Part shown: positions 8,291 to 48,760 of the stretch, one piece after another
Layout of the letters: the number at the start of each line of letters is the position of its first letter
Position numbering within the stretch: position 1 is the stretch's first letter
Assembly (NCBI GenBank): GCA_017415515.1
Contig: JAFQGI010000038.1
Location: forward strand, 945-64,944
Source of the DNA: Clostridia bacterium
Lineage (GTDB): Bacteria; Bacillota; Clostridia; Oscillospirales; Acutalibacteraceae
Length of the DNA stretch: 64,000 nt
Direction: 5' to 3'
Notes under the pieces: generated by a model
What the model was told of the DNA's origin: nothing
The model's database searches: none
Seen by the model: only the letters and a program-made list of their open reading frames with translations
Program-made: the position numbers and the translations under genes

Positions 8291-8438
8291 CACTCCCCAT
8301 TTATCCGCCTCTCCGCAATTTATACTTGTTTTTTTTCTTTTTTATGGTACCATATAATCAAGGGGTATTATGCTCAGTTCCATCCACAAGATGGGACAAC
8401 CCTACCAAACCCATTTCATATACAGAAAGGATGAATGG

Positions 8439-11400: not shown

Positions 11401-12422
11401 CCACCGACTGGGAGATCGCTCTCAACGTCGGCTGGGACGAGGCGGGGGTGGAGCACCTCTCCGGCGATCTGGTAATCCGCCACTCCGTGGTGGATACCCA
11501 CGAGGGCTTCTACGTATCGGACGGCGGTCTGACGGTGTCCAACACCACCCTGACCATGACGGTGAACTATACCGGCACAGGCGTGCACGGGGACATCCTG
11601 TTCACCGACAGCATCGTCACCGTGTCCTCCAACGAGGACAGCGCGGGCTATCTGTTTACCTCCGATCACGGCACGCTGACCTTTGATAACTGCGATCTGA
11701 CGCTGTCCTGCGGCGAGTCGCTGTTCCGCACCTGGTATTATTACGAGGACTCCACCCCCGGCTCCCACTCCGCCCCCAATATGGAGTCCATCCGCTTTGA
11801 AAATATGACCATCCTCACACCGGAGAGCTACACCATCGTGGACGTGCGCGGGACGGATCCTAACGGCTACTACTGCGGTCATACCGAGCTGGCCGGCGCC
11901 GACGGCACCTACGCCACCTACCTGACCGCCACGGCAAACGACACGCTCTGCCAGCACGTATACGACCACCACTACGACAGCGACTGCAACCTGTGCGGCA
12001 CCGTCCGCGAGGTCACCGATCCTCAGGAGGAGATCACCAATAACGGCGGCTCGCTGTCGGCGCAGGTCAACGGCGTGGCTTCCCTGTTCAATATGGAAGT
12101 TCAGGGCATGGAGGTGGAGAGTGGCACCGGTGTGGCGGATTATTCCTTCGCCACCCTGGATGGCTACAAGCTGCTGGAGATGGGTACCGTCGCCTCCAAC
12201 GGCGTGGCTTCCGTGACGGTTCCCATCCGCTATGTGTATCGTGTGGAGGACGATTTCGTGTATTACGCGGTGCGCGTGATCAACGTGCCCGAGGATCATT
12301 TCGACACGCCGATCCACTTCCTGCCGTATTTCGTCATCGAGGTCAACGGCGAGGCCGTCACCTTGTACGGCGAGGAGTACGTCACTTCGTATAACGAACT
12401 GCAGACTGTTGCATTCAAATAA
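8439..12422 (+). CDS. Very large secreted repeat protein (beta-helix/adhesin-like) with one HC3 knuckle and a conserved C-terminal domain
   Basis: Start at MMKTRKLLALLMSLLLVLTLTPFSVTAED (signal peptide; AGAAAGG RBS). Four internal modules are headed by SG(E/N)GW.W..NVLTL (about 8566, 9424, 10059, 11028). Then CQHVYDHHYDSDCNLCGTVREV, followed by about 130 aa homologous to the C-terminus of 40045..42594. Confidence 0.85.
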   Translation: MMKTRKLLALLMSLLLVLTLTPFSVTAEDTSRLLIITDDDAASGEGWTWENNVLTLSADVAADAVRIDSGVTSAKVVLEGNVTLNSAALDGVSALQAACDLEIDAGDYTLTLYSGNAVVLAAAQALILSGGRVYTRSGSNHYRDVSVADGNLTVTDATLVSRIGGIYARGSLVATNAHVSGSCLSEEDDETAGIRIRGGVTATDSTLYANSSWCGMVCGSFTVDNCEISLYGSAEHGSLRVDYREGPYVNTSCISITNMHMYDEKTEDNPYGYEYAVEVFNDGTYYWAEMTLDGEQGWSIEGFPANPLIPAEGKVKELVVGGVNALKYPQGEGWSFNAESGVLTLDNCTITENYVSCYDSTDKDALIYYRGALTIELVGDNYLERTVEYEPAYDSTQFAAIYGDYYYDGEGDTDSPLTIQGTGHLTAGVTFVEGAEEWWLSCQQFAICAVADLSGLRDGGSASVYCGVANVPRAGMFRAFWCSPSYGDVMMLVFNDIEGADENPDGFNWNNNDAWRAEFITGEHYLTAGGKLILNGNTNASGNGWAWADNVLTLAADTPVTSLVITDKVDEATVVLAGDLTLKADGGGYGSTAIQAACDLTIDLNDYNLTVTALDGASAYIFATEPGDMTIQNGRLTVHTAPYDTEWAEQMGSEYEMGIRHIVAAGSMTLKDVNIQAPYTGFVATDLEVELDYDEETGETTYAYYDGGPLTLDNVTIVSSDLYGQTGVSIHNSKVNATSSEYSAIGCSYSEESSTIYMADSTVCAACTSEWGWVLEANAVVMDNCQVMFSGATIYRGDTADSVTMTNMTITDPAECIFGETTDYYGDVVYAFLDAYGEQLTYLSNMNYSLQQSRLILKDDRPLSGNGWSWKNHVLTLAEGSEVKAVKFPAELGYAKLVLIGDVTLDTRGMEQENYKYVPAIEAHCDLEIDAGDRTLTLRGYGNGITMRFADLTITGGTVDIATEQSYNPPLAIESVGGGVTIADTTLTTDWEIALNVGWDEAGVEHLSGDLVIRHSVVDTHEGFYVSDGGLTVSNTTLTMTVNYTGTGVHGDILFTDSIVTVSSNEDSAGYLFTSDHGTLTFDNCDLTLSCGESLFRTWYYYEDSTPGSHSAPNMESIRFENMTILTPESYTIVDVRGTDPNGYYCGHTELAGADGTYATYLTATANDTLCQHVYDHHYDSDCNLCGTVREVTDPQEEITNNGGSLSAQVNGVASLFNMEVQGMEVESGTGVADYSFATLDGYKLLEMGTVASNGVASVTVPIRYVYRVEDDFVYYAVRVINVPEDHFDTPIHFLPYFVIEVNGEAVTLYGEEYVTSYNELQTVAFK

Positions 12423-16403: not shown

Positions 16404-16430
16404 ATATACACCTTCTTACTATGGCTTTAA

Positions 16431-16503: not shown

Positions 16504-16507
16504 TGAC

Positions 16508-16545
16508 AAAAAGGCGGCAAATCCCAATGGGACTTGCCGCCTTTT
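16508..16545 (-). terminator. Terminator after the GH94-like gene
   Basis: AAAAGGCGGCAA..TTGCCGCCTTTT hairpin. Confidence 0.6.
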
Positions 16546-16577
16546 GCGTATCAAATCTTAGCGGCTATACTCCGCAA

Positions 16578-22288: not shown

Positions 22289-25150
22289 ATGAAAAGATTT
22301 TTCGCCATCTTAACGAGCATACTGCTGCTGTGCTCCGCCATTCCCCTCACCGCCCTCTCCGTCGCCGCCACCTCTGGCACCACCGGTGATTGCACCTGGA
22401 CGCTGGATGACAACGGCGTGCTCACGATCAGCGGTCAAGGAAAAATGGAGTCCTACAACACCTTCGGCACGCCCTGGGGCAAGGAAATCACCTCCGTTAT
22501 CGTTGAAGAAGGCGTTTCCTTTGTGGGCAAATACGCTTTTTACGATTGTCTCAACCTAACCTCCGTTTCGTTGCCCTCCACGCTTTCCGAGTTGGGCGAA
22601 GGCGCCTTTTACGGGTGCACCGGATTAACCGAGATCACGCTTCCCGACGGCTTACAAAGCAGCGGTTATTTTGCTTTCGCCAACTGCGCCAATCTCACCA
22701 CCGTCACCTTTGGCCAAGGTCTCCTTCGGGTGGAGGACAGCTCCTTCCGCGACTGTTCTTCTTTGACCACCGTCATTCTTCCCGACACCGTTTATTACAT
22801 AGAAAGCAACGCGTTTTCCGGCTGCGGCAAGCTGACCGAATTTCACGTCCCCGCCGGCCTGACCAATATCGGTTCCTTCGCGTTTAACAACTGCTCGTCA
22901 CTGAAACAATTCTCCATTCCGGACGGCGTGACTGCCATCCCCACCGCCGCCTTTGCCGGTTGTCGGTCTTTGGCGTCCGTCACGCTGCCGCAACAGCTGT
23001 CCACCATTGACACCCAAGCGTTTTACAACTGTTCAGCCTTAACCTCCATCGCCTTTCCTCCCACGCTGACCACAATAAACGGCGCTGCCTTTCAGAATTG
23101 TTCTTCTTTGACAGAGGTGGTCATACCCGGTTCCGTCACCGTTCTTTCCGGCGAGGTCTTTTCCGGTTGTTCCTCTGTGCAACGTGTAGTGTTCGAGCCT
23201 TATAGTGGCACCGACGAGGACCCCGGTCTGTATCTCGATCAAGGCATTTTCAGCTCTTGTTACGCATTACAAGAAGTGGTATGGGATCGACCAATAACCA
23301 GCATTCCCAATCGTCTGTTCAACGAATGCTCCTCCCTCTCCTCTATCGTGATTCCGGAGGGGGTCACCTCCATTGGCGAAAATGCTTTTGCTTATTGCAA
23401 CTCCCTGAACACCATACACATCCCCTCTTCCCTAACCATCATTAAGCGAGATGCCTTTCTCTTCGCAAATTCTCTGAACGACGTAAGCATCACCGATCTT
23501 TCCGCTTGGTGTTCCATCCGGTTTGAGAACAGCTCCTCTCAGCCCATGAGCGGAGGCAGTCTCTATCTCAACGGCGAAAAAGTCACCTGCATGGAAATTC
23601 CCGAAGACATCACCGCCATCCCCGCCTATTGCTTCTCTGACTGCAACGGTCTGCAGAAGGTGATCATGCACGACGGCATCACCTCTGTCGGTGCCTACGC
23701 TTTCGCATGGAATCAGCAATTGGAGGAGGTCGTGCTCTCTCGTCAATTATCGGTCATCGAAAGTCATACGTTCTACTTGTGTAACAAATTGGCCAAAGCA
23801 GATCTTCCCGAAGGCCTGTTGGAAATCCACGACTGCGCATTCACCGACTGTGCGTTCCCCTTCGTCATCATTCCTCACGGCGTTACTGCGATAGAAGAAG
23901 AGGCTTTTTCAAGTTGCGACAATGTGCGCTATCTGGTGTTGCCCAACACGGTGACTTCCATCGGTTACGATATGTTCGGCTATATCAACCACTTTAACGA
24001 CGTGTACTATCGCGGCACCGAAACAGATCGGGACGCGATTTCCATCAACACGCTCTCCAACGAGCGCCTGCTGGAAGCCACCTGGCATTATTCCACCTGC
24101 GCTATGAACGAGCACCTCTATTCCTCCGATTGCGATGCCTATTGCAACGCTTGCGATTGGGTGCGCGAGAGCGGCGACCACACCTACGATCACGCCTGTG
24201 ATCCCGACTGCAACCTCTGCGGCACCGTCCGCGAGGTGGAGCCCCACGCCTACGTGGACACCGTCACCACCCCCGCCACCTGCGTCACAGATGGTGTGAC
24301 GTCCTATGTTTGCTCCGTTTGCGGAGATACCTACACCACGGTTATCCCCGCCACCGGCGACCACGCCTACGATCACGCCTGTGATCCCGACTGCAACCTC
24401 TGCGGCACCGTCCGCGAGGTGGAGCCCCACGCCTACGTGGACACCGTCACCACCCCCGCCACCTGCGTCACGGATGGTGTGACGTCCTATGTTTGCTCCG
24501 TTTGCGGAGATACCTACACCACGGTTATCCCCGCCACCGGCGACCACGCCTACGACAGCGACCAAGATCCCTCTTGTAACGTCTGCGGCACCCTCCGTCA
24601 GATAACGTGCCCCGACACCGGTATCGTTATCGGCGGTGCCACCTTCCCCGCCGGCACCACCGTATCTGTAAAGAGAGTGGAGCCTATCGATCTCATTCCC
24701 CTTTTCGGCGAACTGATCGTGGTCTATGACATCTCTCTGAGCCTGGACAGCGTAAGCATTCAGCCCAGCGGTATGGTCTCCGTCACCTTGCCTATGCCGG
24801 AAAGCGCCGCACAATATACCGACCTGCACATCGTATATATTGACGAAAACGGTCATATGACCCTCTGCGAAACCACCGTCAACCCCGACGGAACACTCAC
24901 CTTCTTTACCGATCACTTCAGCCATTACGGTATCGTCGGCACTCCCCAGCCTTCCATCGTCTTTGGTGACGTGACCGGTGACGGCAAGATCAACAACAAA
25001 GACCTGGCTATGTTGCAGCAACATCTCAGCGATTGGGACGTGCCTATTGATGAACAGGCCGCCGATGTGACCGGTGACAACAAGATCAATAACAAAGACC
25101 TGGCCAAATTGCAGCAATATCTCAGCGATTGGGACGTTATCCTTGGCTAA
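22289..25150 (+). CDS. Secreted BspA-type leucine-rich-repeat protein with HC3 knuckle repeats and a C-terminal dockerin-like double repeat
   Basis: Signal peptide MKRFFAILTSILLLCSAIPLTALSVAA. About 20 LRR_5-type repeats (F..C..L..I.IP..V..IG..AF..C). Knuckles such as HTYDHACDPDCNLCGTVREV and PATCVTDGVTSYVCSVCGDTY. C-terminus GDVTGDGKINNKDLAMLQQHLSDWDV...DVTGDNKINNKDLAKLQQYLSDWDV. Confidence 0.9.
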   Translation: MKRFFAILTSILLLCSAIPLTALSVAATSGTTGDCTWTLDDNGVLTISGQGKMESYNTFGTPWGKEITSVIVEEGVSFVGKYAFYDCLNLTSVSLPSTLSELGEGAFYGCTGLTEITLPDGLQSSGYFAFANCANLTTVTFGQGLLRVEDSSFRDCSSLTTVILPDTVYYIESNAFSGCGKLTEFHVPAGLTNIGSFAFNNCSSLKQFSIPDGVTAIPTAAFAGCRSLASVTLPQQLSTIDTQAFYNCSALTSIAFPPTLTTINGAAFQNCSSLTEVVIPGSVTVLSGEVFSGCSSVQRVVFEPYSGTDEDPGLYLDQGIFSSCYALQEVVWDRPITSIPNRLFNECSSLSSIVIPEGVTSIGENAFAYCNSLNTIHIPSSLTIIKRDAFLFANSLNDVSITDLSAWCSIRFENSSSQPMSGGSLYLNGEKVTCMEIPEDITAIPAYCFSDCNGLQKVIMHDGITSVGAYAFAWNQQLEEVVLSRQLSVIESHTFYLCNKLAKADLPEGLLEIHDCAFTDCAFPFVIIPHGVTAIEEEAFSSCDNVRYLVLPNTVTSIGYDMFGYINHFNDVYYRGTETDRDAISINTLSNERLLEATWHYSTCAMNEHLYSSDCDAYCNACDWVRESGDHTYDHACDPDCNLCGTVREVEPHAYVDTVTTPATCVTDGVTSYVCSVCGDTYTTVIPATGDHAYDHACDPDCNLCGTVREVEPHAYVDTVTTPATCVTDGVTSYVCSVCGDTYTTVIPATGDHAYDSDQDPSCNVCGTLRQITCPDTGIVIGGATFPAGTTVSVKRVEPIDLIPLFGELIVVYDISLSLDSVSIQPSGMVSVTLPMPESAAQYTDLHIVYIDENGHMTLCETTVNPDGTLTFFTDHFSHYGIVGTPQPSIVFGDVTGDGKINNKDLAMLQQHLSDWDVPIDEQAADVTGDNKINNKDLAKLQQYLSDWDVILG
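24174..24558 (+). repeat. In-frame tandem duplication, 183-bp unit (2 near-identical copies plus the start of a third)
   Basis: TACGATCACGCCTGTGATCCCGAC starts at 24185 and again at 24368; the related TACGACAGCGAC starts at 24551. The two full copies differ at only a couple of positions, for example CACAGATGG versus CACGGATGG. Confidence 0.9.
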
Positions 25151-35235: not shown

Positions 35236-35264
35236 TTGACTTGAAAAATCTGCTATATTATAAT
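35236..35264 (+). promoter_or_regulatory. Consensus-like sigma-A promoter (TTGACT-17 nt-TATAAT) for the ABC exporter pair
   Basis: Read directly from the sequence. Confidence 0.5.
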
Positions 35265-35302
35265 AATAGGGTTAGTAATAAACGCGTAAAAAAGAAAGAA
35301 GA

Positions 35303-37051: not shown

Positions 37052-38984
37052 ACCTCCTGTGAAAGGTCCCGGTGGACGTGGCCCCATGGGGCCCCGCCCC
37101 AAGGTAAAGAAGGAAACCCTCCCCCGTGTGCTGAAGCTGTTGTATCAGTTTTATCCCAGGCTGATTCCCGTCGTGGTCTTCTGCATCGTCTTTGCCGCCG
37201 TTGTCAACGCCATCCCCTCCATCTTCACCCAAAAGGTGTTGGCGGTCATCGTGGAAAGTCTGGATAACGGCGCCACCTGGGCCGAGGCCTTCCCCAAGAT
37301 CATGCCGCTCATCGGCATTCTCATCGGCCTCTATGTGCTGACCATTATTCTCATCACCGTGCAGACTCAGCTGATGGCCTATATCACCCAGGGCTTCCTC
37401 AGCAAGATGCGGTGCAAGATGTTTGACGGTATGCAAAACCTGCCTATCAAATATTTCGACACCCATAAGCACGGCGATATTATGAGCCATTACACCAACG
37501 ACATCGACACCCTGCGCCAGCTCATTTCCCAATCTCTGCCCAGCCTGTTGCAAGCAGGCATTGTGGTGGTGACGGTGCTGTTCATTATGCTGTATTACAG
37601 CGTGCTGATGACCTTGGTGGTGCTGCTGGGCGTGGTGGCCATGTTCTTTGTTTCCAAAAAGATCGGCGGCGGCTCCGCCAAGTATTTCGTCCGTCAGCAG
37701 CAGGCGGTGGGCCGCACCGAGGGCTTCATCCAAGAGATGATGAACGGCCAGCGTGTGGTCAAGGTGTTCTGCCACGAGGATGAGGCGCAGGAGGACTTTG
37801 ACGCCCTCAACGATCAGTTGTTCCACGACAGCTTCCGCGCCAACGCCTTCGCCAACAGCTTAGGCCCCATCATCATGAACATCGGCAACGTGCTGTACGT
37901 GGCCTGCGCCATGATCGGCGGTCTGTTCTTGGTGGCCAACGTGCCCAACATCAGCTTGTCGGGCCTGAAATTCTCCATCGACATCGTGGTACCTTTCCTC
38001 AATATGACCAAGCAGTTCACCGGTAACGTCAACCAGGTTTCTCAGCAGATCAACCACATCGCCATGGGTCTGGCGGGTGCCGAGCGCCTGTTCGAGCTGA
38101 TGGACGCCGAGCCGGAAGTGGATGACGGCTACGTGACGTTGGTCAACGCCACCGTGGCAGAGGACGGCACCATCACCGAGTGCGCCGAACACACCGGCAC
38201 CTGGGCGTGGAAGCACCCCCACGAGGACGGCACCCTCACCTACACCCTGCTGAAAGGCGACGTGCGCCTCACCGAGGTGGACTTTGCTTACGAAGAGGGC
38301 AAGCCGGTGCTTCACGACGTGTCGGTTTACGCCGAACCGGGCCAAAAGGTGGCCTTTGTCGGCTCCACCGGTGCCGGTAAGACCACCATCACCAACCTGA
38401 TCAACCGCTTCTACGACATCGCAGACGGTAAGGTGCGGTACGACGGCATCAACATCAACAAGATCAAAAAAGCGGATCTGCGCCGCTCTTTGGGCATCGT
38501 GCTGCAGGATACCAATCTGTTCACCGGCACGGTGATGGACAACATCCGCTACGGCAATCTGGACGCCACCGATGAGCAGTGCCGTCAAGCCGCCAAACTG
38601 GCGGGCGCGGACGATTTCATCACCCGTCTGCCAAAGGGCTACGACACCCTGCTGACAAACAACGGCGCCAACCTCTCCCAAGGCCAGCGCCAGCTCATTG
38701 CCATCGCCCGCGCAGCGGTGGCCGACCCGCCCTGTCTCATTCTGGACGAGGCCACCTCCTCCATCGACACCCGCACCGAGGCCATCGTGCAGCGGGGTAT
38801 GGATAAGCTGATGGAGGGTCGCACGGTGTTCGTCATCGCCCACCGCCTGTCCACCATTATGGATTCGGACGTGATTATGGTGCTGGAAAAAGGCCGCATC
38901 ATCGAGCGCGGCAGCCACGAAAGCCTGCTGGCTGAAAAGGGCACCTATTATCAGCTCTACACCGGCGCATTTGAGTTGGAATAA
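37044..38984 (+). CDS. ABC transporter permease/ATP-binding protein (type 1 exporter, heterodimer partner 2)
   Basis: The ATG at 37044 overlaps the upstream gene by 8 nt and follows GAGAGGGGG. Walker A GSTGAGKTT, signature LSQGQRQLIAIARA, Walker B LILDEATSSID. Confidence 0.9.
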   Translation: MSKPPVKGPGGRGPMGPRPKVKKETLPRVLKLLYQFYPRLIPVVVFCIVFAAVVNAIPSIFTQKVLAVIVESLDNGATWAEAFPKIMPLIGILIGLYVLTIILITVQTQLMAYITQGFLSKMRCKMFDGMQNLPIKYFDTHKHGDIMSHYTNDIDTLRQLISQSLPSLLQAGIVVVTVLFIMLYYSVLMTLVVLLGVVAMFFVSKKIGGGSAKYFVRQQQAVGRTEGFIQEMMNGQRVVKVFCHEDEAQEDFDALNDQLFHDSFRANAFANSLGPIIMNIGNVLYVACAMIGGLFLVANVPNISLSGLKFSIDIVVPFLNMTKQFTGNVNQVSQQINHIAMGLAGAERLFELMDAEPEVDDGYVTLVNATVAEDGTITECAEHTGTWAWKHPHEDGTLTYTLLKGDVRLTEVDFAYEEGKPVLHDVSVYAEPGQKVAFVGSTGAGKTTITNLINRFYDIADGKVRYDGININKIKKADLRRSLGIVLQDTNLFTGTVMDNIRYGNLDATDEQCRQAAKLAGADDFITRLPKGYDTLLTNNGANLSQGQRQLIAIARAAVADPPCLILDEATSSIDTRTEAIVQRGMDKLMEGRTVFVIAHRLSTIMDSDVIMVLEKGRIIERGSHESLLAEKGTYYQLYTGAFELE

Positions 38985-38990
38985 CCACAT

Positions 38991-39026
38991 AAAAAAGGAG
39001 CAGCCCTCACGGGTTGCTCCTTTTCT
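38991..39026. terminator. Bidirectional terminator
   Basis: AAAAAAGGAGCAGCCC-tcac-GGGTTGCTCCTTTT. Confidence 0.65.
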
Positions 39027-39031
39027 TTTAT

Positions 39032-39661
39032 TTAGGGTTTGCAGATACCACAGGGAGAATATCCCATATTGATAATTTCCTCCCGACTCATCGTAACATC
39101 TTCGCGATTTTTGGTCGGTAATTTTCTACAGGTAATATAATGAAATTTCTTAGAATCCGTATTTAGCACATATTTTGTTTTTTGTTCTGTAGTTGTAATT
39201 TTCTTCGTTGTTGTAGTCTTTGTCGTAGTGATAATCCTCGTAGTCGTTATCGTCGGAGTTTTCGTGATGGTTGCCCCTTTTGTCGTTGTCACCTTTTGCG
39301 TCGTTATCTTTTTAGTGGTAGAGGTCACATCTTCCGTAACGGACGCTGTGGTGTTTTCAGCCTCCGTAAAGGCAGTCGATACTGTCGTCGTACTGCCCGA
39401 AACAGGAGTCTCCTCCGTCTCTGAAGACTCCGTCATCGGGAATGTGCACAATGTAGCAACCGCCAAAACCAAAGCAAGAATCGGTTTGAGCTTCCCTTTT
39501 ATCCACTTTTTAATCAGGGTTTGCCACTGTTCAATCGGCATCAGTAGTGCAATCGTCAATAAACCAAGCACGGCGGAAAAATGAGGCAAAGAAGCCAACG
39601 CTATCACACCTAAAAACACTACAGCAACCCAAAGCAAGACCTTTTTCATAATTTTCATCAT
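39032..39661 (-). CDS. Membrane-anchored Thr-rich protein with a C-terminal Cys3 (Ada-like) putative zinc-binding motif
   Basis: Two N-terminal TM segments, then a long T-rich spacer (TTTKKITTQKVTTTKGATITKTPTITTTRIITTTKTTTTKKITTTEQK). C-terminus KFHYITCRKLPTKNREDVTMSREEIINMGYSPCGICKP. Low G+C by eye. Confidence 0.7.
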   Translation of the reverse strand: MMKIMKKVLLWVAVVFLGVIALASLPHFSAVLGLLTIALLMPIEQWQTLIKKWIKGKLKPILALVLAVATLCTFPMTESSETEETPVSGSTTTVSTAFTEAENTTASVTEDVTSTTKKITTQKVTTTKGATITKTPTITTTRIITTTKTTTTKKITTTEQKTKYVLNTDSKKFHYITCRKLPTKNREDVTMSREEIINMGYSPCGICKP

Positions 39662-40044: not shown

Positions 40045-42594
40045 TTATTTACCGGCTGTGTTATAGCTCTTGCTGACGGAGTCGCCGTAGACCACAACTT
40101 CCTCACCGTCTACCTCAATCACGTAGTAGGGACGGGCAGTAACAACGGTATCCTTGCCTTTCTCAGGGATATCGATGATACGGATGGCAAAGGATACGAC
40201 ATCCGACCTCCATCCCCACAGATGCTTCGCTTCAATATTGATCACAGAAGCGTTGTCCACATTGTCCAGCTCCAACACCGCATCGGCTTGGTTGGACACC
40301 ACGGCGCCCATACGCACCACCTTGTAGCTCTCGCCACTGGCATAAGGCACCACGGAAGCCGAGTTCATCACGTACACGTTGCCGTTCTCCACCTGGCTGC
40401 CACTCACTTTCGCGTTAAAGAGGAAAGCCAGGCCATTCACATCCTCCGAGATGCTGGAGCCGGCATAGGCCATCACCTGCGCAATCTGACGGATGGCGTC
40501 GCAGTCATTGCAATCGGTATCGTTGCCGTTATCGTAGGTGTGATTACCCGTAGCGGCGACCGCCTCGGTATAGCTATTGCCACACACCGCACAGGTGTAG
40601 GTGCGCACGCCCTCCTTGACACAGGTGGGGGCGGTGGTAATCTGAGAGGTATATGCGTGATCCGCAGGCACACGGGTGGCACCGCACAGGTTGCATTCGG
40701 CATCGCAAGCGTTGTCGTACGCATGGGTACAGGGAGCCTTGGTGGCGGTGAAATAGTACAGCGTACCGCTGGCCCGCTTATACAGCGTCAAAGAGCCACC
40801 GGTGGTGGTGGAATAGCAAGCATAGCCATAGGTGCCGTTGCGGCGCAGATTGGCGTTGACACCGTCAGCCTTGTTGCCCACGTTGACAAATTCATAGGCG
40901 CCGTCGCCGGTGACCGTCCACTTACCATAGTCGGTGAGGGTGGTCAGCAAAGCCGCCTTGTTCTTGGTGCCGTTGCCGCCGGCATACGCATCGGCAGAGG
41001 CGTTGTACAGCGTCCAGTAGCTGCCGTTCTTGCCGATATGCCACACCGCGTTGGCGGCAGGATCTTGAATGGTGGCGGAGGTGGTGTCCACATCCACATA
41101 ATTGAAACGGGTGCCGGAGTTAATCTCCGCAATCAGCGCACCACCGTTGTGCACGATGAGATAATCGCCCTCGGTGATCGTACCACTGTAAGGCTCATAG
41201 GTGTTGTTATTCACCACGCCACCCTCTTCGCTACGGGCGTAGAGAGCGTAGAGAGTGACACCTGCAGATACGGTCCACGAGGCACCCGCCGCATAATAGG
41301 TGGGCTCGGTGGTGGTCTCGGTCACCTCGTAGGAGCACCAGCCCAGGAAGGTCTGACCCGCAGGAACAGAGCCGCTGTGGGCAGGCAGCGTGATGGCATC
41401 ACCGACATAGGCCGTTTGCGTGGAGCTGCTGCCCGTCTGCACAAACTGGACAGCCACCTGCTCCCGCTTACCAAAGTTGATGCGCACCGACACGTCGGAG
41501 GAAGGCGCCACGGTAAACTTGTTGCCGTTGCGGGTGACGGTGGCGGTACCGGACAGGATGGTATAACCGGTGGCTTCATAGCCGGTCTTGGGGCTGGCGG
41601 TGATGACGTTGCCGCTCACCGATACGGTGCCGTAATCGGAATTGCTGGTGGAGGCGGTGACGGTATAGCCCGCCGTAGCGCCCTCACCGGAGGGGGAATC
41701 GTAGCCCGCAGGCACCTCCTCGTCAAACAGCAGGAAGGCCAGCTCGGGATAGTCCACGAATACGTTGCGGGTGCCGGTGATGGACTCCACCGAGTCGTTA
41801 CGACCCAGCTCCCAGGTATCCACGGGGTCTTCCTCCATCCATTTGAGCAGGATTTCCTTACTCTCGATGACACCGGAGGAGCCCCACATATAATCCAAAG
41901 CGCCGTCAGCGTAGGAACTACCACCCCAGCAAACGTAGACGTACAGCACCACACGTGCCACGTCGCCGCGCACGCTCTGCCCCAGTTGGTCGGGGTCATA
42001 ATATTTACTGCCTTCACCGTAGGCGGTGTTGCTGCGGCCGGAGTTTTCGCTGACAGAGGCAGGGCGGAGCATCATAATATCGGTCTCACGCTGGGTGTTG
42101 CTGTCGCTGCCGCCGTTACTCTTACTGTTGGGCCAGGTGTGCTCGCGGTTCCAAGTCTTGCCGCTGTCCCAAGAGGGGCCAATGGCGTTGCCGGAATAGA
42201 ACGAGGAAATGGAGCCGCCATTGTTTTCGCAATCGGTATATTGGAACAAACTTCTGGTGGCGTCATAAGACGTGGGGTTATCCAAATTCCCATACATCAG
42301 GCTATGCAGCTCCTCATACAGCGAGCTATACGGGACGCTGCTGGTGGTGGACGAGCCGGACAGGGACGCCAACGCGGCGTATTCCACGCCATTGGTGTCA
42401 TAAAAATCCTCCGCCATGGGCGACAGGAAGGTGGCAAGCTCGTCACGCTCGCCCCAGTTGTAGACGTAGTTGCCGGAATACACGTAGTTGACCGTAGCCG
42501 CCCGAACGGGCACCACGATCAAGCTGGCAAAGACGCTGACCAACAGCATCAGGCTCGCCAACCACGCCAAAGAACGCTTAGTAAACCGTTTCAT
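40045..42594 (-). CDS. Secreted endonuclease I (EndA/Vvn family) fused to Listeria-Bacteroides-type repeats, HC3 knuckles and a conserved C-terminal domain
   Basis: Signal peptide MKRFTKRSLAWLASLMLLVSVFASLIVVPVRAA. Endonuclease I motifs NREHTWPNSKSNGG, DIMMLRPASVSENSGRSN, RGDVARVVLYVYV. FLGWCSYE repeat. CTHAYDNACDAECNLCG / PTCVKEGVRTYTCAVCGNSY / NHTYDNGNDTDCNDCDAIRQI. The last ~145 aa are homologous to the C-terminus of 8439..12422. Confidence 0.85.
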   Translation of the reverse strand: MKRFTKRSLAWLASLMLLVSVFASLIVVPVRAATVNYVYSGNYVYNWGERDELATFLSPMAEDFYDTNGVEYAALASLSGSSTTSSVPYSSLYEELHSLMYGNLDNPTSYDATRSLFQYTDCENNGGSISSFYSGNAIGPSWDSGKTWNREHTWPNSKSNGGSDSNTQRETDIMMLRPASVSENSGRSNTAYGEGSKYYDPDQLGQSVRGDVARVVLYVYVCWGGSSYADGALDYMWGSSGVIESKEILLKWMEEDPVDTWELGRNDSVESITGTRNVFVDYPELAFLLFDEEVPAGYDSPSGEGATAGYTVTASTSNSDYGTVSVSGNVITASPKTGYEATGYTILSGTATVTRNGNKFTVAPSSDVSVRINFGKREQVAVQFVQTGSSSTQTAYVGDAITLPAHSGSVPAGQTFLGWCSYEVTETTTEPTYYAAGASWTVSAGVTLYALYARSEEGGVVNNNTYEPYSGTITEGDYLIVHNGGALIAEINSGTRFNYVDVDTTSATIQDPAANAVWHIGKNGSYWTLYNASADAYAGGNGTKNKAALLTTLTDYGKWTVTGDGAYEFVNVGNKADGVNANLRRNGTYGYACYSTTTGGSLTLYKRASGTLYYFTATKAPCTHAYDNACDAECNLCGATRVPADHAYTSQITTAPTCVKEGVRTYTCAVCGNSYTEAVAATGNHTYDNGNDTDCNDCDAIRQIAQVMAYAGSSISEDVNGLAFLFNAKVSGSQVENGNVYVMNSASVVPYASGESYKVVRMGAVVSNQADAVLELDNVDNASVINIEAKHLWGWRSDVVSFAIRIIDIPEKGKDTVVTARPYYVIEVDGEEVVVYGDSVSKSYNTAGK

Positions 42595-42731
42595 ATAAAT
42601 CTCCTCCGCTTTTATGAATAGAGTAGATATTCCTCTTTACTATCATACACCTCTCGGTGACGATTTACAAGATTTTTTTACAAAAAAGGAAAGCCCGAGG
42701 TCGCCCCCGGACTTTCCCATAGGATACGCCG

Positions 42732-44387
42732 TTATTTCAGCACAACGTCCCAATCAGCCAAATACTGCTGCAAGAGGGCCAGATCCTTGTTGTTGACCTT
42801 GCCGTCATCGTTGACGTCTGCCACGTGGGTGTCGATCGCCACGTCCCAGTCAGACAGATACTGCTGCAAGAGGGCCAAATCCTTGTTGTTCACCTTGCCG
42901 TCACCATTGGCGTCGCCGGGTATGACGACCTCACGCACCGCACCGCAGGTGTTGCAGTCCGCGTCCAAATCGTCGTCATAGCTGTGCCCGATAGCGGGAA
43001 TTGCCACCTGAGCGATCAGGATTTTGCCGCACACGGAACACTGCTCGCCGTCGGTGAGACCGTCCTCTTCACAGGTGGCGGCATAACCCTCCACCACCAC
43101 AGAGGAGTGCCCCAACGCTTCGGTGCGGTCCGACACGTAGCTGTCACCGCACACCGAGCAGGTGTGGGTGGTGTAGCCGCCATTCTCGCAATCGGGGGCG
43201 GTCACCACCGCGTTGTAGCTGTGGGTGATCTCGCGCTCCTCACCGCAAACGTTACAGGCGGCATCGCAAGCGTTGTCATACTTGTGCCCCAAGGCACTCG
43301 CCAATTCTTTGCCGCACACCACACAGGTCTGTGCGTTTTCGCAATCCGCCGCATCCCCGGCGGTGTGACCCAGAGCGGGCACGCGATTGTCCACGCAGCT
43401 ATAACCGCAGGTCAAGCAGGTGTGGGTGGTATAACCGCCGTTTTCGCAATCGGGGGCGGTGACTACAATATCGTACTCATGGCCCGGTGCGGTATCGATA
43501 TCCGTATAGCTGTCGCCGCAGCCGGAGCAAGTGTAGGTACGCGTGCCATCCGTCACGCAGGTGGGATCCACCTTGTCGATCAGGATATAATTGTGGGGTT
43601 CCACAGGTTCGCGGACGAGCCCGCATTTGTTACAATCGGCATCGCACACGCCGCTGTACGTATGATTACCGGTGGCAGGGATGATAACGTACTTGACCTT
43701 GCCGCAATCCCAGCATTTATAGCCATCCGAGCCATCCTCACCGCAGGTGGGCTCCACCGTGCCCATGAAGATATAATTGTGAGCATCCTCACGGATATAG
43801 CCGCAAACGTTGCAATCCTCATCGCAACCATACTCATAGGTATGCGTGCCGGTGGCGGGAAGCGGCTCGGTATAGCTGTCGCCGCAGGCGGAACAGACGT
43901 ACACCTTTTTGCCGTCTGCAATGCAGGTAGGGGCCACGTCTTCGGTCAGCTTATAATCGTGTCCCAGTGCATCCACGCGATTGTCCACATAGCTGTCGCC
44001 GCAGACCGTGCAGGTGTGGATGATATAGCCGCTGTTTTCACAATCGGGGACGATCTCGGTATCTTGGTAATTGTGGGCGGTCTCCCGCACATCGCCGCAG
44101 ACGTTGCAATCGGCGTCACAGGCGTTGTCATAGGTGTGGTCAGCCAAGGGCAACCGGGCATCAGAGCCCGCCACCACCAGACCGCACGCAACGCAGCGCT
44201 CATACGCACCGCATCCGGGAGTGGTGCAGGTGGATTCCACCGCCGCCACCGATTTGGTGGTGCTGTGGGTGCAGGCGTATTCTCCCCAGTTAAACTCATC
44301 GTCGTTGTAGCTCCCCGATGCGCTGACCATCGGCGCCGAGGTCATCAGCAACAACACAGACAAAACGATTGCCAAATACCGTTTCAT
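42732..44387 (-). CDS. Secreted protein made almost entirely of about 14 HC3 (HxY..C..CxxCG) knuckle units, with a C-terminal dockerin-like double repeat
   Basis: Signal peptide MKRYLAIVLSVLLLMTSAPMVSASG. Short units (HTYDNACDADCNVCGDVRE) alternate with long units (HDYKLTEDVAPTCIADGKKVYVCSACGDSY). C-terminus GDANGDGKVNNKDLALLQQYLSDWDV..DVNDDGKVNNKDLALLQQYLADWDV. Confidence 0.85.
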   Translation of the reverse strand: MKRYLAIVLSVLLLMTSAPMVSASGSYNDDEFNWGEYACTHSTTKSVAAVESTCTTPGCGAYERCVACGLVVAGSDARLPLADHTYDNACDADCNVCGDVRETAHNYQDTEIVPDCENSGYIIHTCTVCGDSYVDNRVDALGHDYKLTEDVAPTCIADGKKVYVCSACGDSYTEPLPATGTHTYEYGCDEDCNVCGYIREDAHNYIFMGTVEPTCGEDGSDGYKCWDCGKVKYVIIPATGNHTYSGVCDADCNKCGLVREPVEPHNYILIDKVDPTCVTDGTRTYTCSGCGDSYTDIDTAPGHEYDIVVTAPDCENGGYTTHTCLTCGYSCVDNRVPALGHTAGDAADCENAQTCVVCGKELASALGHKYDNACDAACNVCGEEREITHSYNAVVTAPDCENGGYTTHTCSVCGDSYVSDRTEALGHSSVVVEGYAATCEEDGLTDGEQCSVCGKILIAQVAIPAIGHSYDDDLDADCNTCGAVREVVIPGDANGDGKVNNKDLALLQQYLSDWDVAIDTHVADVNDDGKVNNKDLALLQQYLADWDVVLK

Positions 44388-44471
44388 AGATACTCTCCTT
44401 TAAAGACTGCATCTTAACGCCTAAATTGTACCGCAGTTCGTGAAAATTGTCAACCACAACCCCTCTATAAG

Positions 44472-44502
44472 ACAAGCCCGAGGGCGAAACCCTCGGGCTT
44501 GT
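44472..44502 (-). terminator. Rho-independent terminator
   Basis: ACAAGCCCGAGGG-cgaaa-CCCTCGGGCTTGT. Confidence 0.7.
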
Positions 44503-44517
44503 TGGAAACAGAAAGAA

Positions 44518-47500
44518 TTAAGCCAATTCCACGTCCCAATCGGCCAGATACTGCTGCAGGAGAGCCAGGTCTTTGTTGTTGACCTTGCCGTCGCCATTGG
44601 CGTCGCCTGCCGCAGCGGTCTTATCGACGATCGTCACGCCGCCGTTCACAGCGTAGAACCATACGGTATCATCGGCAGCATTGAAAATGTCATTCACGCA
44701 GTCGAACTCGGGAACGATGTCGTACATCTCGCCCACCTGCGCACTTTCCAAAACCTCAAAGGTCAAAGTGGCCAGCATCTGCGCCGTCGAATTGGGCTGC
44801 GTAGCGTCACACCAGTTGACGATGAAATAGCCCTTCTCGTTGGCGGCGGCCACATCGCCCCAGGAATAGCCACCGGCGGAGAAGTTACCCGCCTCATAGC
44901 TCACCAACTTCAGCACCGTGTTGTCGAAGTGTACCTTCACCTTGACAGAGACGATACCGGGATTGTTATCCACCTGAATCTGGACTTTGACATTCTCGCC
45001 GACGGCACCCGTGTTGGTGGATGCCGCGATGCCGCCCACATACACAGGCTTCTCAGGCACTTCGCGGATGGCGCCGCACTCGTTACAGTCGGCGTCGTAC
45101 TCGTCGTCATAGACGTGGTCGCCCACCTCACGCAGCTCACCGCACAGGTTGCACTCGTCGTCGCAAGCGTTGTCATACTCGTGCTCGCAAGGCTCGACAG
45201 GGGGCTCCTCCTCGAAATAGTAGAACTCGCAGTAGAAGCCTTCATACTCCACCTTGCAGGGACCCACGGTGGTGTAGTTCTTATCGTTGCGGGTACCAAA
45301 CCAATAATCCGCACCGTTCACCTCGGCAATCAGAGTGCCGTACTCGGCATCGTAGCGATACACGGTAGAGGCGGTGTATTCATAGGCACCGTTGACGTGC
45401 TTACCGTCCTCGCTGACCACCATGTTGATGTACACCTTGTTATCTTCCACATCGTAGGTGTAGAAATAGTAGCCACCCTCGGTAGCCTCCACGTACACCA
45501 CGATGGCCTCATCGGGGTCGGTGGTGGTGTCCATATAGAAGCCGTTCATCTCGCCGTTGAGGAAGTAGACGTCCTCTTCGCTGACGTTGTACTGGGTCAT
45601 ACCGAACAGGAAGGGATAGTCGGTCTCGATCTCGTCAGAGACGGGAGGCTCCACGGGAGGATCCACGGGGGTCTCACCGCCACCCTCACCGGGGATGTGC
45701 GCCACGATCCAGCCGTTCTTGATCTGAGGGTTGCCGTTGTACTGACCCACCATACCGTAGATGGTGACGGTGTCACCGGCCACAGGCTTCACGTCCATGG
45801 CGTCGTAACGCTGCTCACCATCGGCACTGTAAGAGCCGTAGATGGTCAGGGTGTTACCCTCACCGTCAGTGATGTACATATTACCCCACTGGGTGTTGTA
45901 CACCTCGGTGATCACACCGGTCACATAGTACCAACCCGCGGTATACACATTGTGCTCCTTGGAAGCACCCAAAGCGATGGCCTCGGCGATGGTCAGCTCG
46001 GTGTCGGGCTCGGGATCCTCATTGGGCACGTCAGGATCCACGGGGTTCTCACCGCCGCCCTCACCGGTGTAGACGGTGATGGAATCCACACGCACCTGGG
46101 CTGCCAGCTCAGCGATCACAAACGTGTCGGCGGGAGCGGCCAAAATCACCGTCACCACGGTACCGTCCACAGAGACGGAGGCGTCGATGATCGAATCTGC
46201 CAGATCGGTGGCATAGGTATCCTTGTAGTCGTCGCAGTTGAACACGATCTGCGTCATACCGGGATACTCCACGGTAACCGTAGAGGACTTGTAGAAACGA
46301 ACGGGATAGCCGTCGCCGCCGTAGTCGCCCACGTTGCTGGTGGAAGCTCCCTTGTCATTGGTCACGGTGACGCCGTTCTGTGCCCACACCTGCTGAGAGG
46401 TGCTGTAGGACACACGGTTAGCCTTGTCACCAAAATCGATGGTAGCAGAGGAAGCAGGCTCCACGGGATCGACAGGCACCTCAGGATCCACGGGAGGCTC
46501 CTCAGGCTCCACGGGGGGCTCTTCGGGGTCAACGGGAGGCACCACAGAGCCGCCGCCCTCACCGTACACGGTGATGGAATCCACACGAACCTGGGCGGCC
46601 AGCTCGGCGATCACGAACGTATCGGCAGGAGCAACCAAAGTGACGGTCACCACGGTGCCGTCCACAGAGACGGAGCCCTCGGTGATGGAAGCCGCCAGAT
46701 CGGTGGCATAGGTATCCTTGTAGTCGTCGCAGTTGAACACGATCTGTGTCATGCCCTTGTAGTCCACGGTAACCGTAGAGGACTTGTAGAAACGAACGGG
46801 ATAGCCGTCGCCTCCGTAGTCACCCACGTTGCTGGTGGAAGCGCCCTTGTCGTTGGTCACGGTGACGCCGTTCTGTGCCCACACCTGCTGAGAGGTGCTG
46901 TAAGACACACGATTGGCCTTATCGGTGAAATCGAGGGTGGCAGAGCCGGTGGGCTCCGCAGGAACATCGGGCACCTCAGGGTCAACGGGAGGCTCCTCGG
47001 GATCCACGGGAGGTTCCTCGGGATCCACGGGAGGCACCACAGAGCCACCACCCTCACCATACACGGTGATGGAATCCACGCGCACCTGGGCTGCCAGCTC
47101 GACGATCACAAACGTGTCGGCGGGAGCAGCCAAAGTGACGGTCACCACGGTGCCGTCCACAGAGACGGAGCCATCGGTGATGGAAGCCGCCAGATCGGTG
47201 GCATAGGTATCCTTGTAGTCGTCGCAGTTGAACACGATCTGCGTCATGCCCTTGTAGTCCACGGTAACGGCAGAGCTCTTATAAAAGCGGACAGGATAGC
47301 CCTCGCCGCCATAGTCACCCACGTTAGAGGTGGATGCCGCTTTGTCGTTGGTCACAGTAATACCGTTCTGTGCCCACACCTGCTGAGAGGTGCTGTAAGA
47401 CACGCGGTTAGCCTTGTCACCAAAATCGATGGTGGCAGAATTGCCTTCGGCCGTTGCAGAGAAGGGGATGATGCTGCACAGCAGCAAAACCGCCAACAAC

Positions 47501-47526
47501 GCAGCGACCAGTTTGCGCATTTTCAT
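44518..47526 (-). CDS. Secreted multidomain protein: 3 tandem 165-aa domains, an OB-fold-like module, HC3 knuckles, a cohesin-like domain and a single dockerin-type segment
   Basis: Signal peptide MKMRKLVAALLAVLLLCSIIPFSATAEG. Triplicated DFGDKANRVSYSTSQQVWAQNG...VDSITVY units are joined by PVDPEEPP linkers. Then CEHEYDNACDDECNLCGELREVGDHVYDDEYDADCNECGAIREV. The cohesin-like stretch is GAVGENVKVQIQVDNNPGIVSVKVKVHFDNTVLKLVSYEAGNF...NGGVTIV. It ends with one copy of GDANGDGKVNNKDLALLQQYLADWDV. Confidence 0.85.
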   Translation of the reverse strand: MKMRKLVAALLAVLLLCSIIPFSATAEGNSATIDFGDKANRVSYSTSQQVWAQNGITVTNDKAASTSNVGDYGGEGYPVRFYKSSAVTVDYKGMTQIVFNCDDYKDTYATDLAASITDGSVSVDGTVVTVTLAAPADTFVIVELAAQVRVDSITVYGEGGGSVVPPVDPEEPPVDPEEPPVDPEVPDVPAEPTGSATLDFTDKANRVSYSTSQQVWAQNGVTVTNDKGASTSNVGDYGGDGYPVRFYKSSTVTVDYKGMTQIVFNCDDYKDTYATDLAASITEGSVSVDGTVVTVTLVAPADTFVIAELAAQVRVDSITVYGEGGGSVVPPVDPEEPPVEPEEPPVDPEVPVDPVEPASSATIDFGDKANRVSYSTSQQVWAQNGVTVTNDKGASTSNVGDYGGDGYPVRFYKSSTVTVEYPGMTQIVFNCDDYKDTYATDLADSIIDASVSVDGTVVTVILAAPADTFVIAELAAQVRVDSITVYTGEGGGENPVDPDVPNEDPEPDTELTIAEAIALGASKEHNVYTAGWYYVTGVITEVYNTQWGNMYITDGEGNTLTIYGSYSADGEQRYDAMDVKPVAGDTVTIYGMVGQYNGNPQIKNGWIVAHIPGEGGGETPVDPPVEPPVSDEIETDYPFLFGMTQYNVSEEDVYFLNGEMNGFYMDTTTDPDEAIVVYVEATEGGYYFYTYDVEDNKVYINMVVSEDGKHVNGAYEYTASTVYRYDAEYGTLIAEVNGADYWFGTRNDKNYTTVGPCKVEYEGFYCEFYYFEEEPPVEPCEHEYDNACDDECNLCGELREVGDHVYDDEYDADCNECGAIREVPEKPVYVGGIAASTNTGAVGENVKVQIQVDNNPGIVSVKVKVHFDNTVLKLVSYEAGNFSAGGYSWGDVAAANEKGYFIVNWCDATQPNSTAQMLATLTFEVLESAQVGEMYDIVPEFDCVNDIFNAADDTVWFYAVNGGVTIVDKTAAAGDANGDGKVNNKDLALLQQYLADWDVELA
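46069..47439 (-). repeat. In-frame tandem triplication, 495-bp period
   Basis: Equivalent codons (I/L-D-F of the DFGDKANRV motif) start at 47430, 46935 and 46440. VDSITVY ends at 47059 and 46069. The copies are highly similar at the DNA level over hundreds of bp. Confidence 0.9.
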
Positions 47527-47629
47527 TGGTTTGTTCCTCCTAAAACTGATATTCGGTGAGAATCAACCTCATCCTTTCCATCATAACACACACCTATCGA
47601 AAAAGCAAGAATATGGTAAGCAAAAAAAC

Positions 47630-47661
47630 AAAAAAGGGCGGAGAAAATCTCCGCCTTTTTT
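47630..47661 (-). terminator. Rho-independent terminator
   Basis: AAAAAAGGGCGGAGA-aaa-TCTCCGCCTTTTTT. Confidence 0.75.
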
Positions 47662-47662
47662 G

Positions 47663-48727
47663 TCAACTGTTTAGTAATCTTTGCAAAGCGCTCAAATCCC
47701 GGTTGTTCAGCTTGCCGTCACTGTTGACGTCGGCACCCGCCTCATTCACCGTCACCGGCCATTCATTGAGATATTTCTGCAAAAGTGCCAAATCCCGGTT
47801 GTTCAACTTGCCGTCGCCGTTAACGTCGCCGGCGGCTACGGGAGGCGCTACGTAGTAGGTGTTCACCAACCACGCCGATTCCTCCACGAAAGCTCCCTGC
47901 TGAATCGCCTCAAAAGGAGAATAGCGGGGAATGTACCAGCCCTGATCGGCGCCGTAGTATTGCATACACTTCGCCAGATCCACCGTCAGGTAATAATAAT
48001 TGCCATCCAGCGCATCGGCATAGTCTGCCATGGCGGTGACAAAGTCATAGCCTCTGGTCTCGGAATAGCGTCCGCGCATCACGTCAATGGGCGGCCACTC
48101 CTCCCCTTCCACGTCGTCGGGGTAGAACAGCTTATACAGATCGGTCCACACGCTGGCCCGCAGATCCACGTAGACGATGGGGCCGCCCACGTGACCGTAG
48201 TGATAGATGCCGTCGGCATCCGCCACCACCGTTTGGGGCTTGGTGATGTCGATGGCGGTGAGCTTCTCACTCGTCATACAGAAGGCATAGTCGATCTCAT
48301 GGCGGTTGTGATAGGTGATATAGGTCACCTTGGTGGGTGCCACGTAATCGTTCTGCTTTTCAATGGTGATGGTGGCGGAGGAGACCCCCGACAGACCGAT
48401 CAGCAGGCTCTGTCCCACAGCGTGACAGGTGACGGTGATCGCACCGTCCACCGCGTCATAGGCGGGCACAGACACGTATTGGGAAGACCCGTACCAAAAA
48501 TTGAGCACGGCATCGGGATCCTCCACCGCCACGCGATAGTTGCCCACCGCCGTGGGCTTAAACTTGAAAATGGTGGTGGTATCCGCATCGGCGGTCACCC
48601 GATTGGTGCCCACCTGCAGGCGGATGTCGGAAACGGTATACTCCGCGGCGGCGGTCACCGTCATTCCGGTGCACAGCAACACCAGCGACAGCACAACACA
48701 CAGCAGAGAACGAACGGACTTGCTCAT
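47663..48727 (-). CDS. Secreted protein of unknown function with a C-terminal dockerin-like double repeat
   Basis: The ATG at 48727 lies 6 nt after GAGG and gives MSKSVRSLLCVVLSLVLLCTGMTVTAAAE (signal peptide). C-terminus GDVNGDGKLNNRDLALLQKYLNEWPV..DVNSDGKLNNRDLSALQRLL. It starts 33 nt after the ddl stop with no terminator between. Confidence 0.8.
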   Translation of the reverse strand: MSKSVRSLLCVVLSLVLLCTGMTVTAAAEYTVSDIRLQVGTNRVTADADTTTIFKFKPTAVGNYRVAVEDPDAVLNFWYGSSQYVSVPAYDAVDGAITVTCHAVGQSLLIGLSGVSSATITIEKQNDYVAPTKVTYITYHNRHEIDYAFCMTSEKLTAIDITKPQTVVADADGIYHYGHVGGPIVYVDLRASVWTDLYKLFYPDDVEGEEWPPIDVMRGRYSETRGYDFVTAMADYADALDGNYYYLTVDLAKCMQYYGADQGWYIPRYSPFEAIQQGAFVEESAWLVNTYYVAPPVAAGDVNGDGKLNNRDLALLQKYLNEWPVTVNEAGADVNSDGKLNNRDLSALQRLLNS

Positions 48728-48760
48728 ACACATCCTCTTTTCTTTATCCGGTATCGTCAT

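Follow-up and report, generated by a model that had tools for sequence, protein, structure and literature searches.

The closest described relatives of the protein reported here are two predicted domains of one enzyme, the M64 IgA protease of Thomasclavelia ramosa (also IgAse, IgAP or ThomasA), and they are the only ones described. Two papers from 2025 treat them, one under the names ZBD1 and ZBD2 (PMC12237041) and the other as CTD2 and CTD4 (PMC12415215). The ZBDs were modeled with AlphaFold3 as subdomains which each form a three-stranded antiparallel sheet and are putatively linked by zinc (PMC12237041), and small-angle X-ray scattering (SAXS) of CTD2 was consistent with a fully extended rod, for which a stalk or "periscope" role was proposed (PMC12415215). 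The domains are known from AlphaFold models and SAXS only. We analyzed a 64,000-nucleotide stretch of DNA from a Clostridia bacterium (contig JAFQGI010000038.1; called the window below) and found that one of its genes, the rod gene, encodes a secreted protein with 14 consecutive His/Cys modules, which are probably akin to the ZBD/CTD2-CTD4 domains. We read this protein as a rigid stalk or spacer riveted by metal, probably zinc, and think this reading probable but well short of certain. Shown here are the sequence pattern and how well it is conserved, how large the family is, the sheets as predicted, and the array statistics; that the array binds metal, which metal this is, its rigidity and stalk function, and the partner of its dockerin are things we infer. 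A first-pass annotation of the window had read the feature right in large part. What is new here is the all-Cys3His chemistry, the 20-residue modules, the dockerin context, and the evidence for ligands shared at the junctions between modules.

Like the rod protein, the IgA protease is secreted by an anaerobic gut Firmicute. Its ZBDs, like the rod modules as predicted here with AlphaFold2 (AF2), are tandem three-stranded antiparallel sheets placed end to end without a hydrophobic core and have no fold relative in the PDB, and in both cases Cys/His sites would lie at the sheet interfaces, with structural zinc and a stalk role proposed. The two differ in chemistry and layout. The protease has three plus two subdomains with His2Cys2 at four of its five sites and Cys3His at one (PMC12237041), whereas all 14 sites proposed for the rod are Cys3His; in the protease a beta-barrel domain interrupts the ZBDs and a sortase anchor ends the chain, whereas the rod array is uninterrupted, carries no enzyme, and ends in a dockerin. 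The 20-residue short knuckles of the rod are not described in the IgA-protease papers. When all PDB sequences were searched with a long-unit profile, the T. ramosa protease (9qa6_A) ranked first at an E-value of 1.6e-4, which gives a probable precedent to the unit that the annotation could assign to no described family. That match consists of three stretches and includes the His and the Cys of an "ATC" motif, while the other PDB matches of the profile (rubredoxins, RPA12, C2H2 fingers) cover the CxxCG knuckle only. When the rod protein and its ortholog P0005 were searched against the PDB with phmmer, only dockerins were returned (E 7.6e-10 for the rod protein) and the IgA protease was not found. 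Two IgA-protease fragments (P0121 and P0125), an M64 locus (L080), and the rod orthologs have the motifs ...AATC..G....Y.C..C... and AAHDYGSDNVCDTCGY in common, the second of which is a short unit without its first Cys. L080 is a metagenomic relative of the M64 IgA protease in which the first ZBD subdomain is duplicated and the ZBD-like region (positions 2400-3900) is broken by in-frame stops and called as separate small genes, which points to either a pseudogene or an assembly error.

The His/Cys pattern of the rod is real and non-random. Full H...C...CxxC matches occur 13 times in the protein, against a mean of 0.7 and a maximum of 4 in 2000 composition-preserving shuffles, and its 14 CxxC motifs compare with a mean of 4.1 in the same shuffles. 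Cys makes up 9.8% of the array but 1-2% of the enzymes encoded in the window. Units 2-9 keep their His and three Cys without exception in 17 orthologs, which differ in how many units they have. The first-pass annotation had described about 14 units of one His and three Cys in this secreted product, and that description stands, although several of its details were too strict. The units span 20-45 residues and not 20-32; HxY, in which it had placed the invariant His, holds in 11 of the 14 units and is replaced by HST, HTA and HSS in the other three; the rod has more than the two spacings listed (see the table); and exactly three Cys are found in most units, with extra Cys in unit 1 (C39 and C59) and unit 9 (C331) and only two Cys in unit 14.

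The modules are preceded by a Sec-type signal peptide, read from the translation, with a basic N-terminus, a hydrophobic core, and a VSA cleavage motif; it is kept in the 17 orthologs, and the AF2 model shows a helix there. They are followed by a type I dockerin, which matches PF00404 at an E-value of 1.2e-13 and 51.4 bits (cut-off 22.9). The full-length structure was predicted with AF2 from an 18-sequence alignment, with a mean predicted local distance difference test score (pLDDT) of 70.5 and a predicted template modeling score (pTM) of 0.23, low values that are expected for a rod. Six long modules are modeled as a clean three-stranded sheet with block pLDDT of 73-82. The same strands are predicted for the seventh, at H265, although its beginning falls where the array scores lowest (65-66 for the blocks over residues 241-260). 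Only short, partial strands are seen in the first, tenth and thirteenth modules, and the short modules have almost no secondary structure. Two neighboring long modules modeled separately (residues 101-178, 24-sequence alignment) gave a mean pLDDT of 95.4 and a pTM of 0.65, and were predicted as two up-down three-stranded sheets stacked end to end, in keeping with the extracellular rod that the annotation had suspected. In this model strand 1 starts two residues after the His, the beta1-beta2 turn holds the lone Cys, and the beta2-beta3 turn holds the CxxC. The lone Cys and the CxxC are at opposite ends of a 7-residue strand, with the His at the CxxC end. Foldseek found no usable PDB match for the full-length model (TM-score below 0.1) and nothing significant for the fragment (E at least 0.3, TM-score at most 0.35); the best, non-significant, probabilities for the fragment were those of the NrdR and RPA12 zinc ribbons, with a TM-score of about 0.33.

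Based on this topology, the Cys3His site is probably at each junction between units and not inside one unit. Each site would join the His and the CxxC of unit i to the lone Cys contributed by unit i-1 or, at the first unit, to a cap Cys upstream of its His. Because the lone Cys and the CxxC are at opposite strand ends, a four-ligand site within one unit is geometrically unlikely, whereas the model allows a lone Cys to come together with the His and CxxC of the unit that follows it. In the rod this register uses 42 of the 44 Cys and completes all 14 proposed sites, leaving C59 and C331, which are non-conserved. In all five window proteins that carry the modules, a Cys is found two residues (once five) before the first His and the last unit has no lone Cys, so that, apart from C59 and C331 of the rod, there are three Cys per site within each array. 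The same signature was looked for in 150 relatives with at most 50% mutual identity. The lone Cys is absent from 39.6% of last units and 4.7% of internal units (odds ratio 13), and a cap Cys within eight residues upstream of the His is found in 31% of first units and 3.4% of internal units (odds ratio 13). Of the units that follow one without its lone Cys, 46.8% carry a cap C-x-H, compared with 1.1% of the rest (odds ratio 78). In a larger set of 275 proteins the array-end statistics agree, and the odds ratio for compensation is 98. The junction register also agrees with the published sites of the IgA protease, which "link the sheets".

The other way to place the ligands is to put a complete site (His, first Cys, CxxC) inside each unit, which would make the protein a string of independent knuckles on flexible links. 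Every internal unit does hold one His and three Cys, the short form has all four residues within 14 residues, which is sterically conceivable, and hhalign and Pfam see a generic CxxCG knuckle only. This placement, however, would orphan the cap Cys in all five proteins (C39 in the rod) and give every last unit only three ligands; it leaves unexplained why last units in particular lose the first Cys and why a Cys before the next His makes up for the loss; and in the long unit it has to bring together residues which AF2 puts at opposite ends of the sheet. We consider it unlikely. The one-His-three-Cys knuckle of the first-pass annotation is therefore retained in composition, but its register probably changes, as topology and array statistics suggest ligands that straddle two units.

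Modules of the same kind were located in four other proteins of the window by a six-frame scan and direct reading, at the four places which the annotation had named, and the scan located none elsewhere in the window. The simplest case is a 1350-residue protein (8370-12422), whose single module, CQHVYDHHYDSDCNLCGTVREV, has three Cys and one His. A BspA-type leucine-rich repeat (LRR) and dockerin protein (22289-25150) has 18 Cys from C604 to C766 for six sites, and a nineteenth, C774, follows the last module. In its gene, at 24172-24555 (plus strand), Tandem Repeats Finder (TRF) reports a 183-bp pair of one short and one long module in 2.1 tandem copies at 99% DNA identity; this duplication is a recent change in the length of the spacer. 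The endonuclease I fusion (40045-42594), with its Endonuclease_1 domain at residues 93-284 by Pfam, has nine module Cys for three sites, and the cohesin and dockerin protein (44518-47526; cohesin PF00963 at E 4e-10, residues 836-936; dockerin PF00404) has six for two sites. The modules stand between a payload and a dockerin, a cohesin, or another C-terminal module, in line with the annotation, and in these proteins one to six modules would form a rigid spacer between the payload (endonuclease I, LRR, or repeat domains) and the C-terminal module.

Two further observations concern these proteins. A domain of about 135 residues directly follows the His/Cys modules and ends both the endonuclease I fusion (40048-40485, minus strand) and the 1350-residue protein (12012-12419, plus strand); the two copies are 34% identical (BLASTP E 1e-25), have no match in Pfam or NCBIfam, and may be an uncharacterized anchoring or binding module. 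The N-terminal part of the cohesin and dockerin protein (46052-47439, minus strand) holds 2.8 copies of a 495-bp (165-residue) repeat; the copies are 87% identical in DNA, have Pro/Glu-rich linkers between them, and match no protein family significantly.

The first-pass annotation had left a choice between a metal site and disulfides. We favor metal because each site has an odd number of Cys, its His does not vary, and the CxxCG knuckle resembles those of zinc ribbons and rubredoxins. Disulfide-stabilized, metal-free cysteine knots, as in EGF-like or other extracellular Cys-rich repeats, might be expected of an extracellular, Cys-rich protein, and Pfam gives weak laminin-type EGF matches in a few homologs. 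But with three Cys at each site one would be left unpaired, the His is no less invariant than the Cys, the hosts live as strict anaerobes in the gut or rumen, and the EGF matches are below threshold and touch eight of 84 isolated units. The IgA protease, moreover, showed no disulfides and needed reducing agents for monodispersity (PMC12237041). Altogether this makes metal-free knots very unlikely. Most improbable of all is that the array is redox-active or holds iron in a rubredoxin-like manner, as an extracellular electron conduit, or that it is a bulk metal store or buffer. The long-unit profile does match rubredoxin CxxCG knuckles, and each chain has 14 sites, with many more in larger relatives. 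The likeness to rubredoxin, however, is a single-knuckle match of about 12 residues, the ligands are Cys3His and not Cys4, and no redox partners are encoded nearby. Sites of successive long modules would be about 35 A apart, judging from the ~110 A model of the three-subdomain ZBD1 (PMC12237041), so electron transfer between them would be inefficient.

Three other known systems can be compared with the metal-riveted array. Rubredoxin shares the local motif Y/T-x-C-x-x-C-G-x-x-Y with the rod units (long-unit profile, E 0.003-0.04) but is a compact cytoplasmic domain of about 50 residues that binds Fe by four Cys from two CxxCG knuckles. Classical zinc ribbons (the TFIIS C-terminal domain, RPA12/Rpb9, the NrdR N-terminus) have, like the rod module, a three-stranded sheet and a CxxC(G) knuckle in a beta-turn, and a distant resemblance of the IgA-protease ZBD to the TFIIS C-terminal domain has been pointed out (PMC12237041). 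They differ in that four ligands come from two CxxC knuckles at the same end of one domain, whereas the rod unit is extracellular and tandem and has one CxxC, a lone Cys and a His, probably shared between modules; Pfam zinc-ribbon models match few of the 84 isolated units, at E above 0.003. The periscope or G5-E stalks of SasG and Aap resemble the proposed rod in being coreless single-layer beta-sheet modules that make a long rigid rod on which a functional domain is held outward (PMC9704523, PMC12415215), and repeat number varies in both; the near-identical DNA repeats that mark periscope proteins are found in the LRR gene but not in the rod gene. SasG and Aap differ in that they are unrelated in sequence and fold and come from Gram-positive cocci. 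Zinc in Aap bridges two chains through His, Asp and Glu, whereas the Cys/His sites of the rod would be coordinated within one chain.

Assembled from these pieces, the proposed mechanism is as follows. The 551-residue product would be exported by the Sec pathway and form an elongated extracellular rod of 14 small modules, of which the nine longer ones would each be a three-stranded antiparallel sheet with almost no hydrophobic core and the five short ones knuckles of roughly 20 residues. A tetrahedral Cys3His site at every junction, built from two modules and most likely holding Zn2+, would act as a rivet, and with 14 of these the modules would be fixed end to end as a stiff stalk. By extrapolation from the ~110 A model of the 129-residue ZBD1 (PMC12237041) to 449 residues, the stalk would be about 35-40 nm long. 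The C-terminal type I dockerin would plug it into a cohesin, plausibly that of the neighboring cohesin protein.

Several points weigh against this reading. The junction register is derived from topology and statistics; the p-values of the array comparisons are inflated because the sequences are related, though the effects are large; the lone Cys is still present in about half of last units; and most first units have no cap Cys within eight residues. When the long and short unit profiles were aligned with hhalign, only the CxxCG knuckle aligned, and the short-unit profile had no match in the PDB. The link to 9qa6_A amounts to 24 bits summed over three individually non-significant stretches, and with a sequence link this weak, membership of the modules in the ZBD/CTD2-CTD4 type is treated as probable and not as proven. 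In the IgA protease, too, the sites come from AlphaFold models and are "pending experimental validation" (PMC12237041), and metal in every member of the family is a prediction. TRF finds no DNA-level tandem repeats in the rod gene, unlike canonical periscope proteins. Lastly, the rod has no payload, so "spacer" does not explain its own role.

The family to which the rod belongs is very large and uncurated, and the rod is an ordinary-sized member of it. We scanned the rod protein, its homologs, and the 84 isolated long units against Pfam (2025), NCBIfam (June 2026) and PHROGs. On the rod protein only the dockerin was found and the modules were left uncovered; for the isolated units the best E-value was 0.0035, with matches scattered over unrelated zinc-finger, zinc-ribbon and EGF models. 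The annotation's view that the unit cannot be assigned to a described family is borne out in the sense that no model of the three collections covers the module. Pfam DUF7479 (PF24292, gathering threshold 27 bits) has no match on the rod protein and matches two of the 84 units at E of at least 0.054; in some homologs its sub-threshold stretches sum to 27-32 bits, with no single stretch above threshold. Membership in the MBSP1 "biosurfactant protein" family was considered and rejected as generic knuckle resemblance (NCBIfam 20.9 bits against a cut-off of 320); MBSP1 is a haloarchaeal protein with a low-confidence rubredoxin-like prediction only (PMC6987170). Literature searches found the repeat described nowhere beyond the two IgA-protease papers (PMC12237041, PMC12415215); a third paper contributes nothing further on the ZBD/CTD2-CTD4 domains.

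A word-indexed search was saturated, with at least 5043 matches among 8000 scored candidates. Searching the long-unit profile against 1.84 billion cluster representatives returned 52,312 proteins at E of at most 1e-3 and 10,156 at E of at most 1e-30, with up to 83 matched stretches per protein and proteins of up to 7583 residues; compared with such arrays of dozens, the 14 units of the rod are modest. In public records these proteins are either called hypothetical or named solely for other domains that they carry. Close relatives of the rod gene come from Acutalibacteraceae, Ruminococcaceae, Oscillospiraceae and Clostridia metagenome-assembled genomes (MAGs), many of them from ruminant guts. 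In relatives the modules neighbor cohesin, dockerin, SLH, choline-binding, LRR, metallo-beta-lactamase-fold and phosphodiester glycosidase domains. A generic rigid spacer or stalk fits because the payloads and anchors are unrelated, the unit number is variable, and the LRR gene shows the duplication described above. For the family as a whole, we see an even chance that its rods are extracellular stalk elements with junction-shared Cys3His zinc, whose integrity would depend on zinc and on anoxia, the rod of this window being a payload-free, dockerin-tipped example.

The rod's own role could be that of a bare stalk, a tip-mediated binder, or an occupant of a cohesin. The tip has six residues (N28, D29, D30, F32, W34 and G35) that are each at least 90% conserved among orthologs, and the tip together with unit 1 was recovered in related loci by tblastn; in the full-length model its pLDDT is below 50. 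The rod gene is part of a cluster of secreted-protein genes at 40045-48760 (minus strand) which encode, in order, a 365-residue dockerin protein, the cohesin protein, the rod, and the endonuclease I fusion. In related Acutalibacteraceae MAGs, tblastn recovered adjacent parts of this order. L023 has the 365-residue protein, cohesin protein and rod, L003 has the last two of these, and L001 and L002 each pair the rod with the endonuclease fusion; no one locus shows all four genes. The gene order suggests a functional cohesin/dockerin gene cluster, and because adjacent parts of it are conserved, the neighboring cohesin is the obvious candidate partner for the rod dockerin.

These findings bear on whether the rod might itself be functional, as an adhesin or ligand-binding fiber or as a decoy or regulator that occupies a cohesin, and not a passive spacer. 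By Pfam, the signal peptide and the dockerin have no other domain between them, the tip is conserved, and the position of the gene within a conserved cohesin/dockerin cluster hints that the rod has a set task in an assembly. Against this, most relatives and the other four window proteins carry the modules between unrelated functional domains, which fits a generic spacer, and the ZBDs of the IgA protease are dispensable for catalysis (PMC12237041). We think such a role for the rod doubtful, and keep the metal-riveted stalk or spacer as our reading. The features of the rod and the module positions in the window are collected below.

Table 1. Features of the rod gene and its product, proposed metal sites, and modules in other window proteins. 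H and C numbers are rod residues unless the row names another protein.
Feature	Position	Strand	Basis or remark
Rod gene, open reading frame (ORF)	42732..44387	minus	551-residue translation
Signal peptide, rod residues 1-23 (MKRYLAIVLSVLLLMTSAPMVSA)	44319..44387	minus	read from translation
N-terminal tip, rod residues 24-38 (SGSYNDDEFNWGEYA)	44274..44318	minus	conserved in orthologs
Array of 14 consecutive His/Cys modules, rod residues 39-487	42927..44273	minus	motif positions, shuffle test, orthologs
Type I dockerin, rod residues 490-543	42759..42920	minus	Pfam PF00404
Two long modules, rod residues 101-178	43854..44087	minus	separate AF2 model
Short form, H-x5-C-x3-C-x2-C-G	H84, H182, H242, H368		
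Short form without first Cys	H468		
Long form, H-x10/11-C-x9-C-x2-C-G	H105, H143, H203, H265, H303, H389		
Longer variant of long form	H41, H427		
Intermediate form, H-x7-C-x5-C-x2-C	H341		
Proposed sites 1-4	C39/H41/C65/C68; C54/H84/C94/C97; C90/H105/C126/C129; C116/H143/C165/C168		
Proposed sites 5-8	C155/H182/C192/C195; C188/H203/C225/C228; C215/H242/C252/C255; C248/H265/C287/C290		
Proposed sites 9-12	C277/H303/C324/C327; C314/H341/C355/C358; C349/H368/C378/C381; C374/H389/C410/C413		
Proposed sites 13-14	C400/H427/C450/C453; C439/H468/C478/C481		
One short module without Cys1, 1350-residue protein	11949..12014	plus	cap Cys (C-Q-H)
Six modules (short, short, long, short, long, short without Cys1), LRR protein	24098..24610	plus	cap Cys C604
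Three modules (short, long, short without Cys1), endonuclease I fusion	40480..40731	minus	cap C622-x-H624
Two short modules (second without Cys1), cohesin and dockerin protein	45052..45189	minus	cap C780-x-H782

Some other genes and ORFs of the window were noted in passing. The 365-residue secreted protein at the head of the cluster (47663-48760, minus strand) has a type I dockerin at E 2.2e-14 and about 300 N-terminal residues without a family match, and a 79%-identical copy of it lies upstream of the cohesin gene in L023. Upstream of the cluster, at 35258-39661 (minus strand), are three ORFs of 614, 376 and 209 residues with no Pfam match at E of at most 1e-4. Opposite the rod and cohesin genes lie antisense ORFs at 42825-44417 (plus strand, 530 residues) and 44440-47559 (plus strand, 1039 residues), whose translations are low in complexity with much Gly, His, Arg and Val; these are probably shadow ORFs of GC-rich coding sequence and not genes. 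Two GH38 alpha-mannosidase-like genes flank a GH94 phosphorylase-like gene at 13734-22010 (minus strand), which together with a glycogen/starch phosphorylase at 58823-61306 represents ordinary carbohydrate metabolism and a chromosomal context.

Because the family has no Pfam or InterPro model, thousands of giant "hypothetical" proteins are annotated through their other domains only. The proposed register names concrete residues to mutate, and the 78-residue fragment should suit structure determination. If the reading is true, junction rivets would be a simple modular route to long rigid extracellular rods from units of about 20-40 residues that are nearly coreless, and gut and rumen Clostridia would have them in tens of thousands of surface proteins, among these LRR adhesins, nucleases, glycosidases, and cohesin/dockerin assemblies. 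Thiolate-zinc sites are usually thought of as intracellular. The rods would be a large class of extracellular ones, viable because the habitat is anoxic, with consequences for the zinc economy and the oxygen sensitivity of the cell surface.

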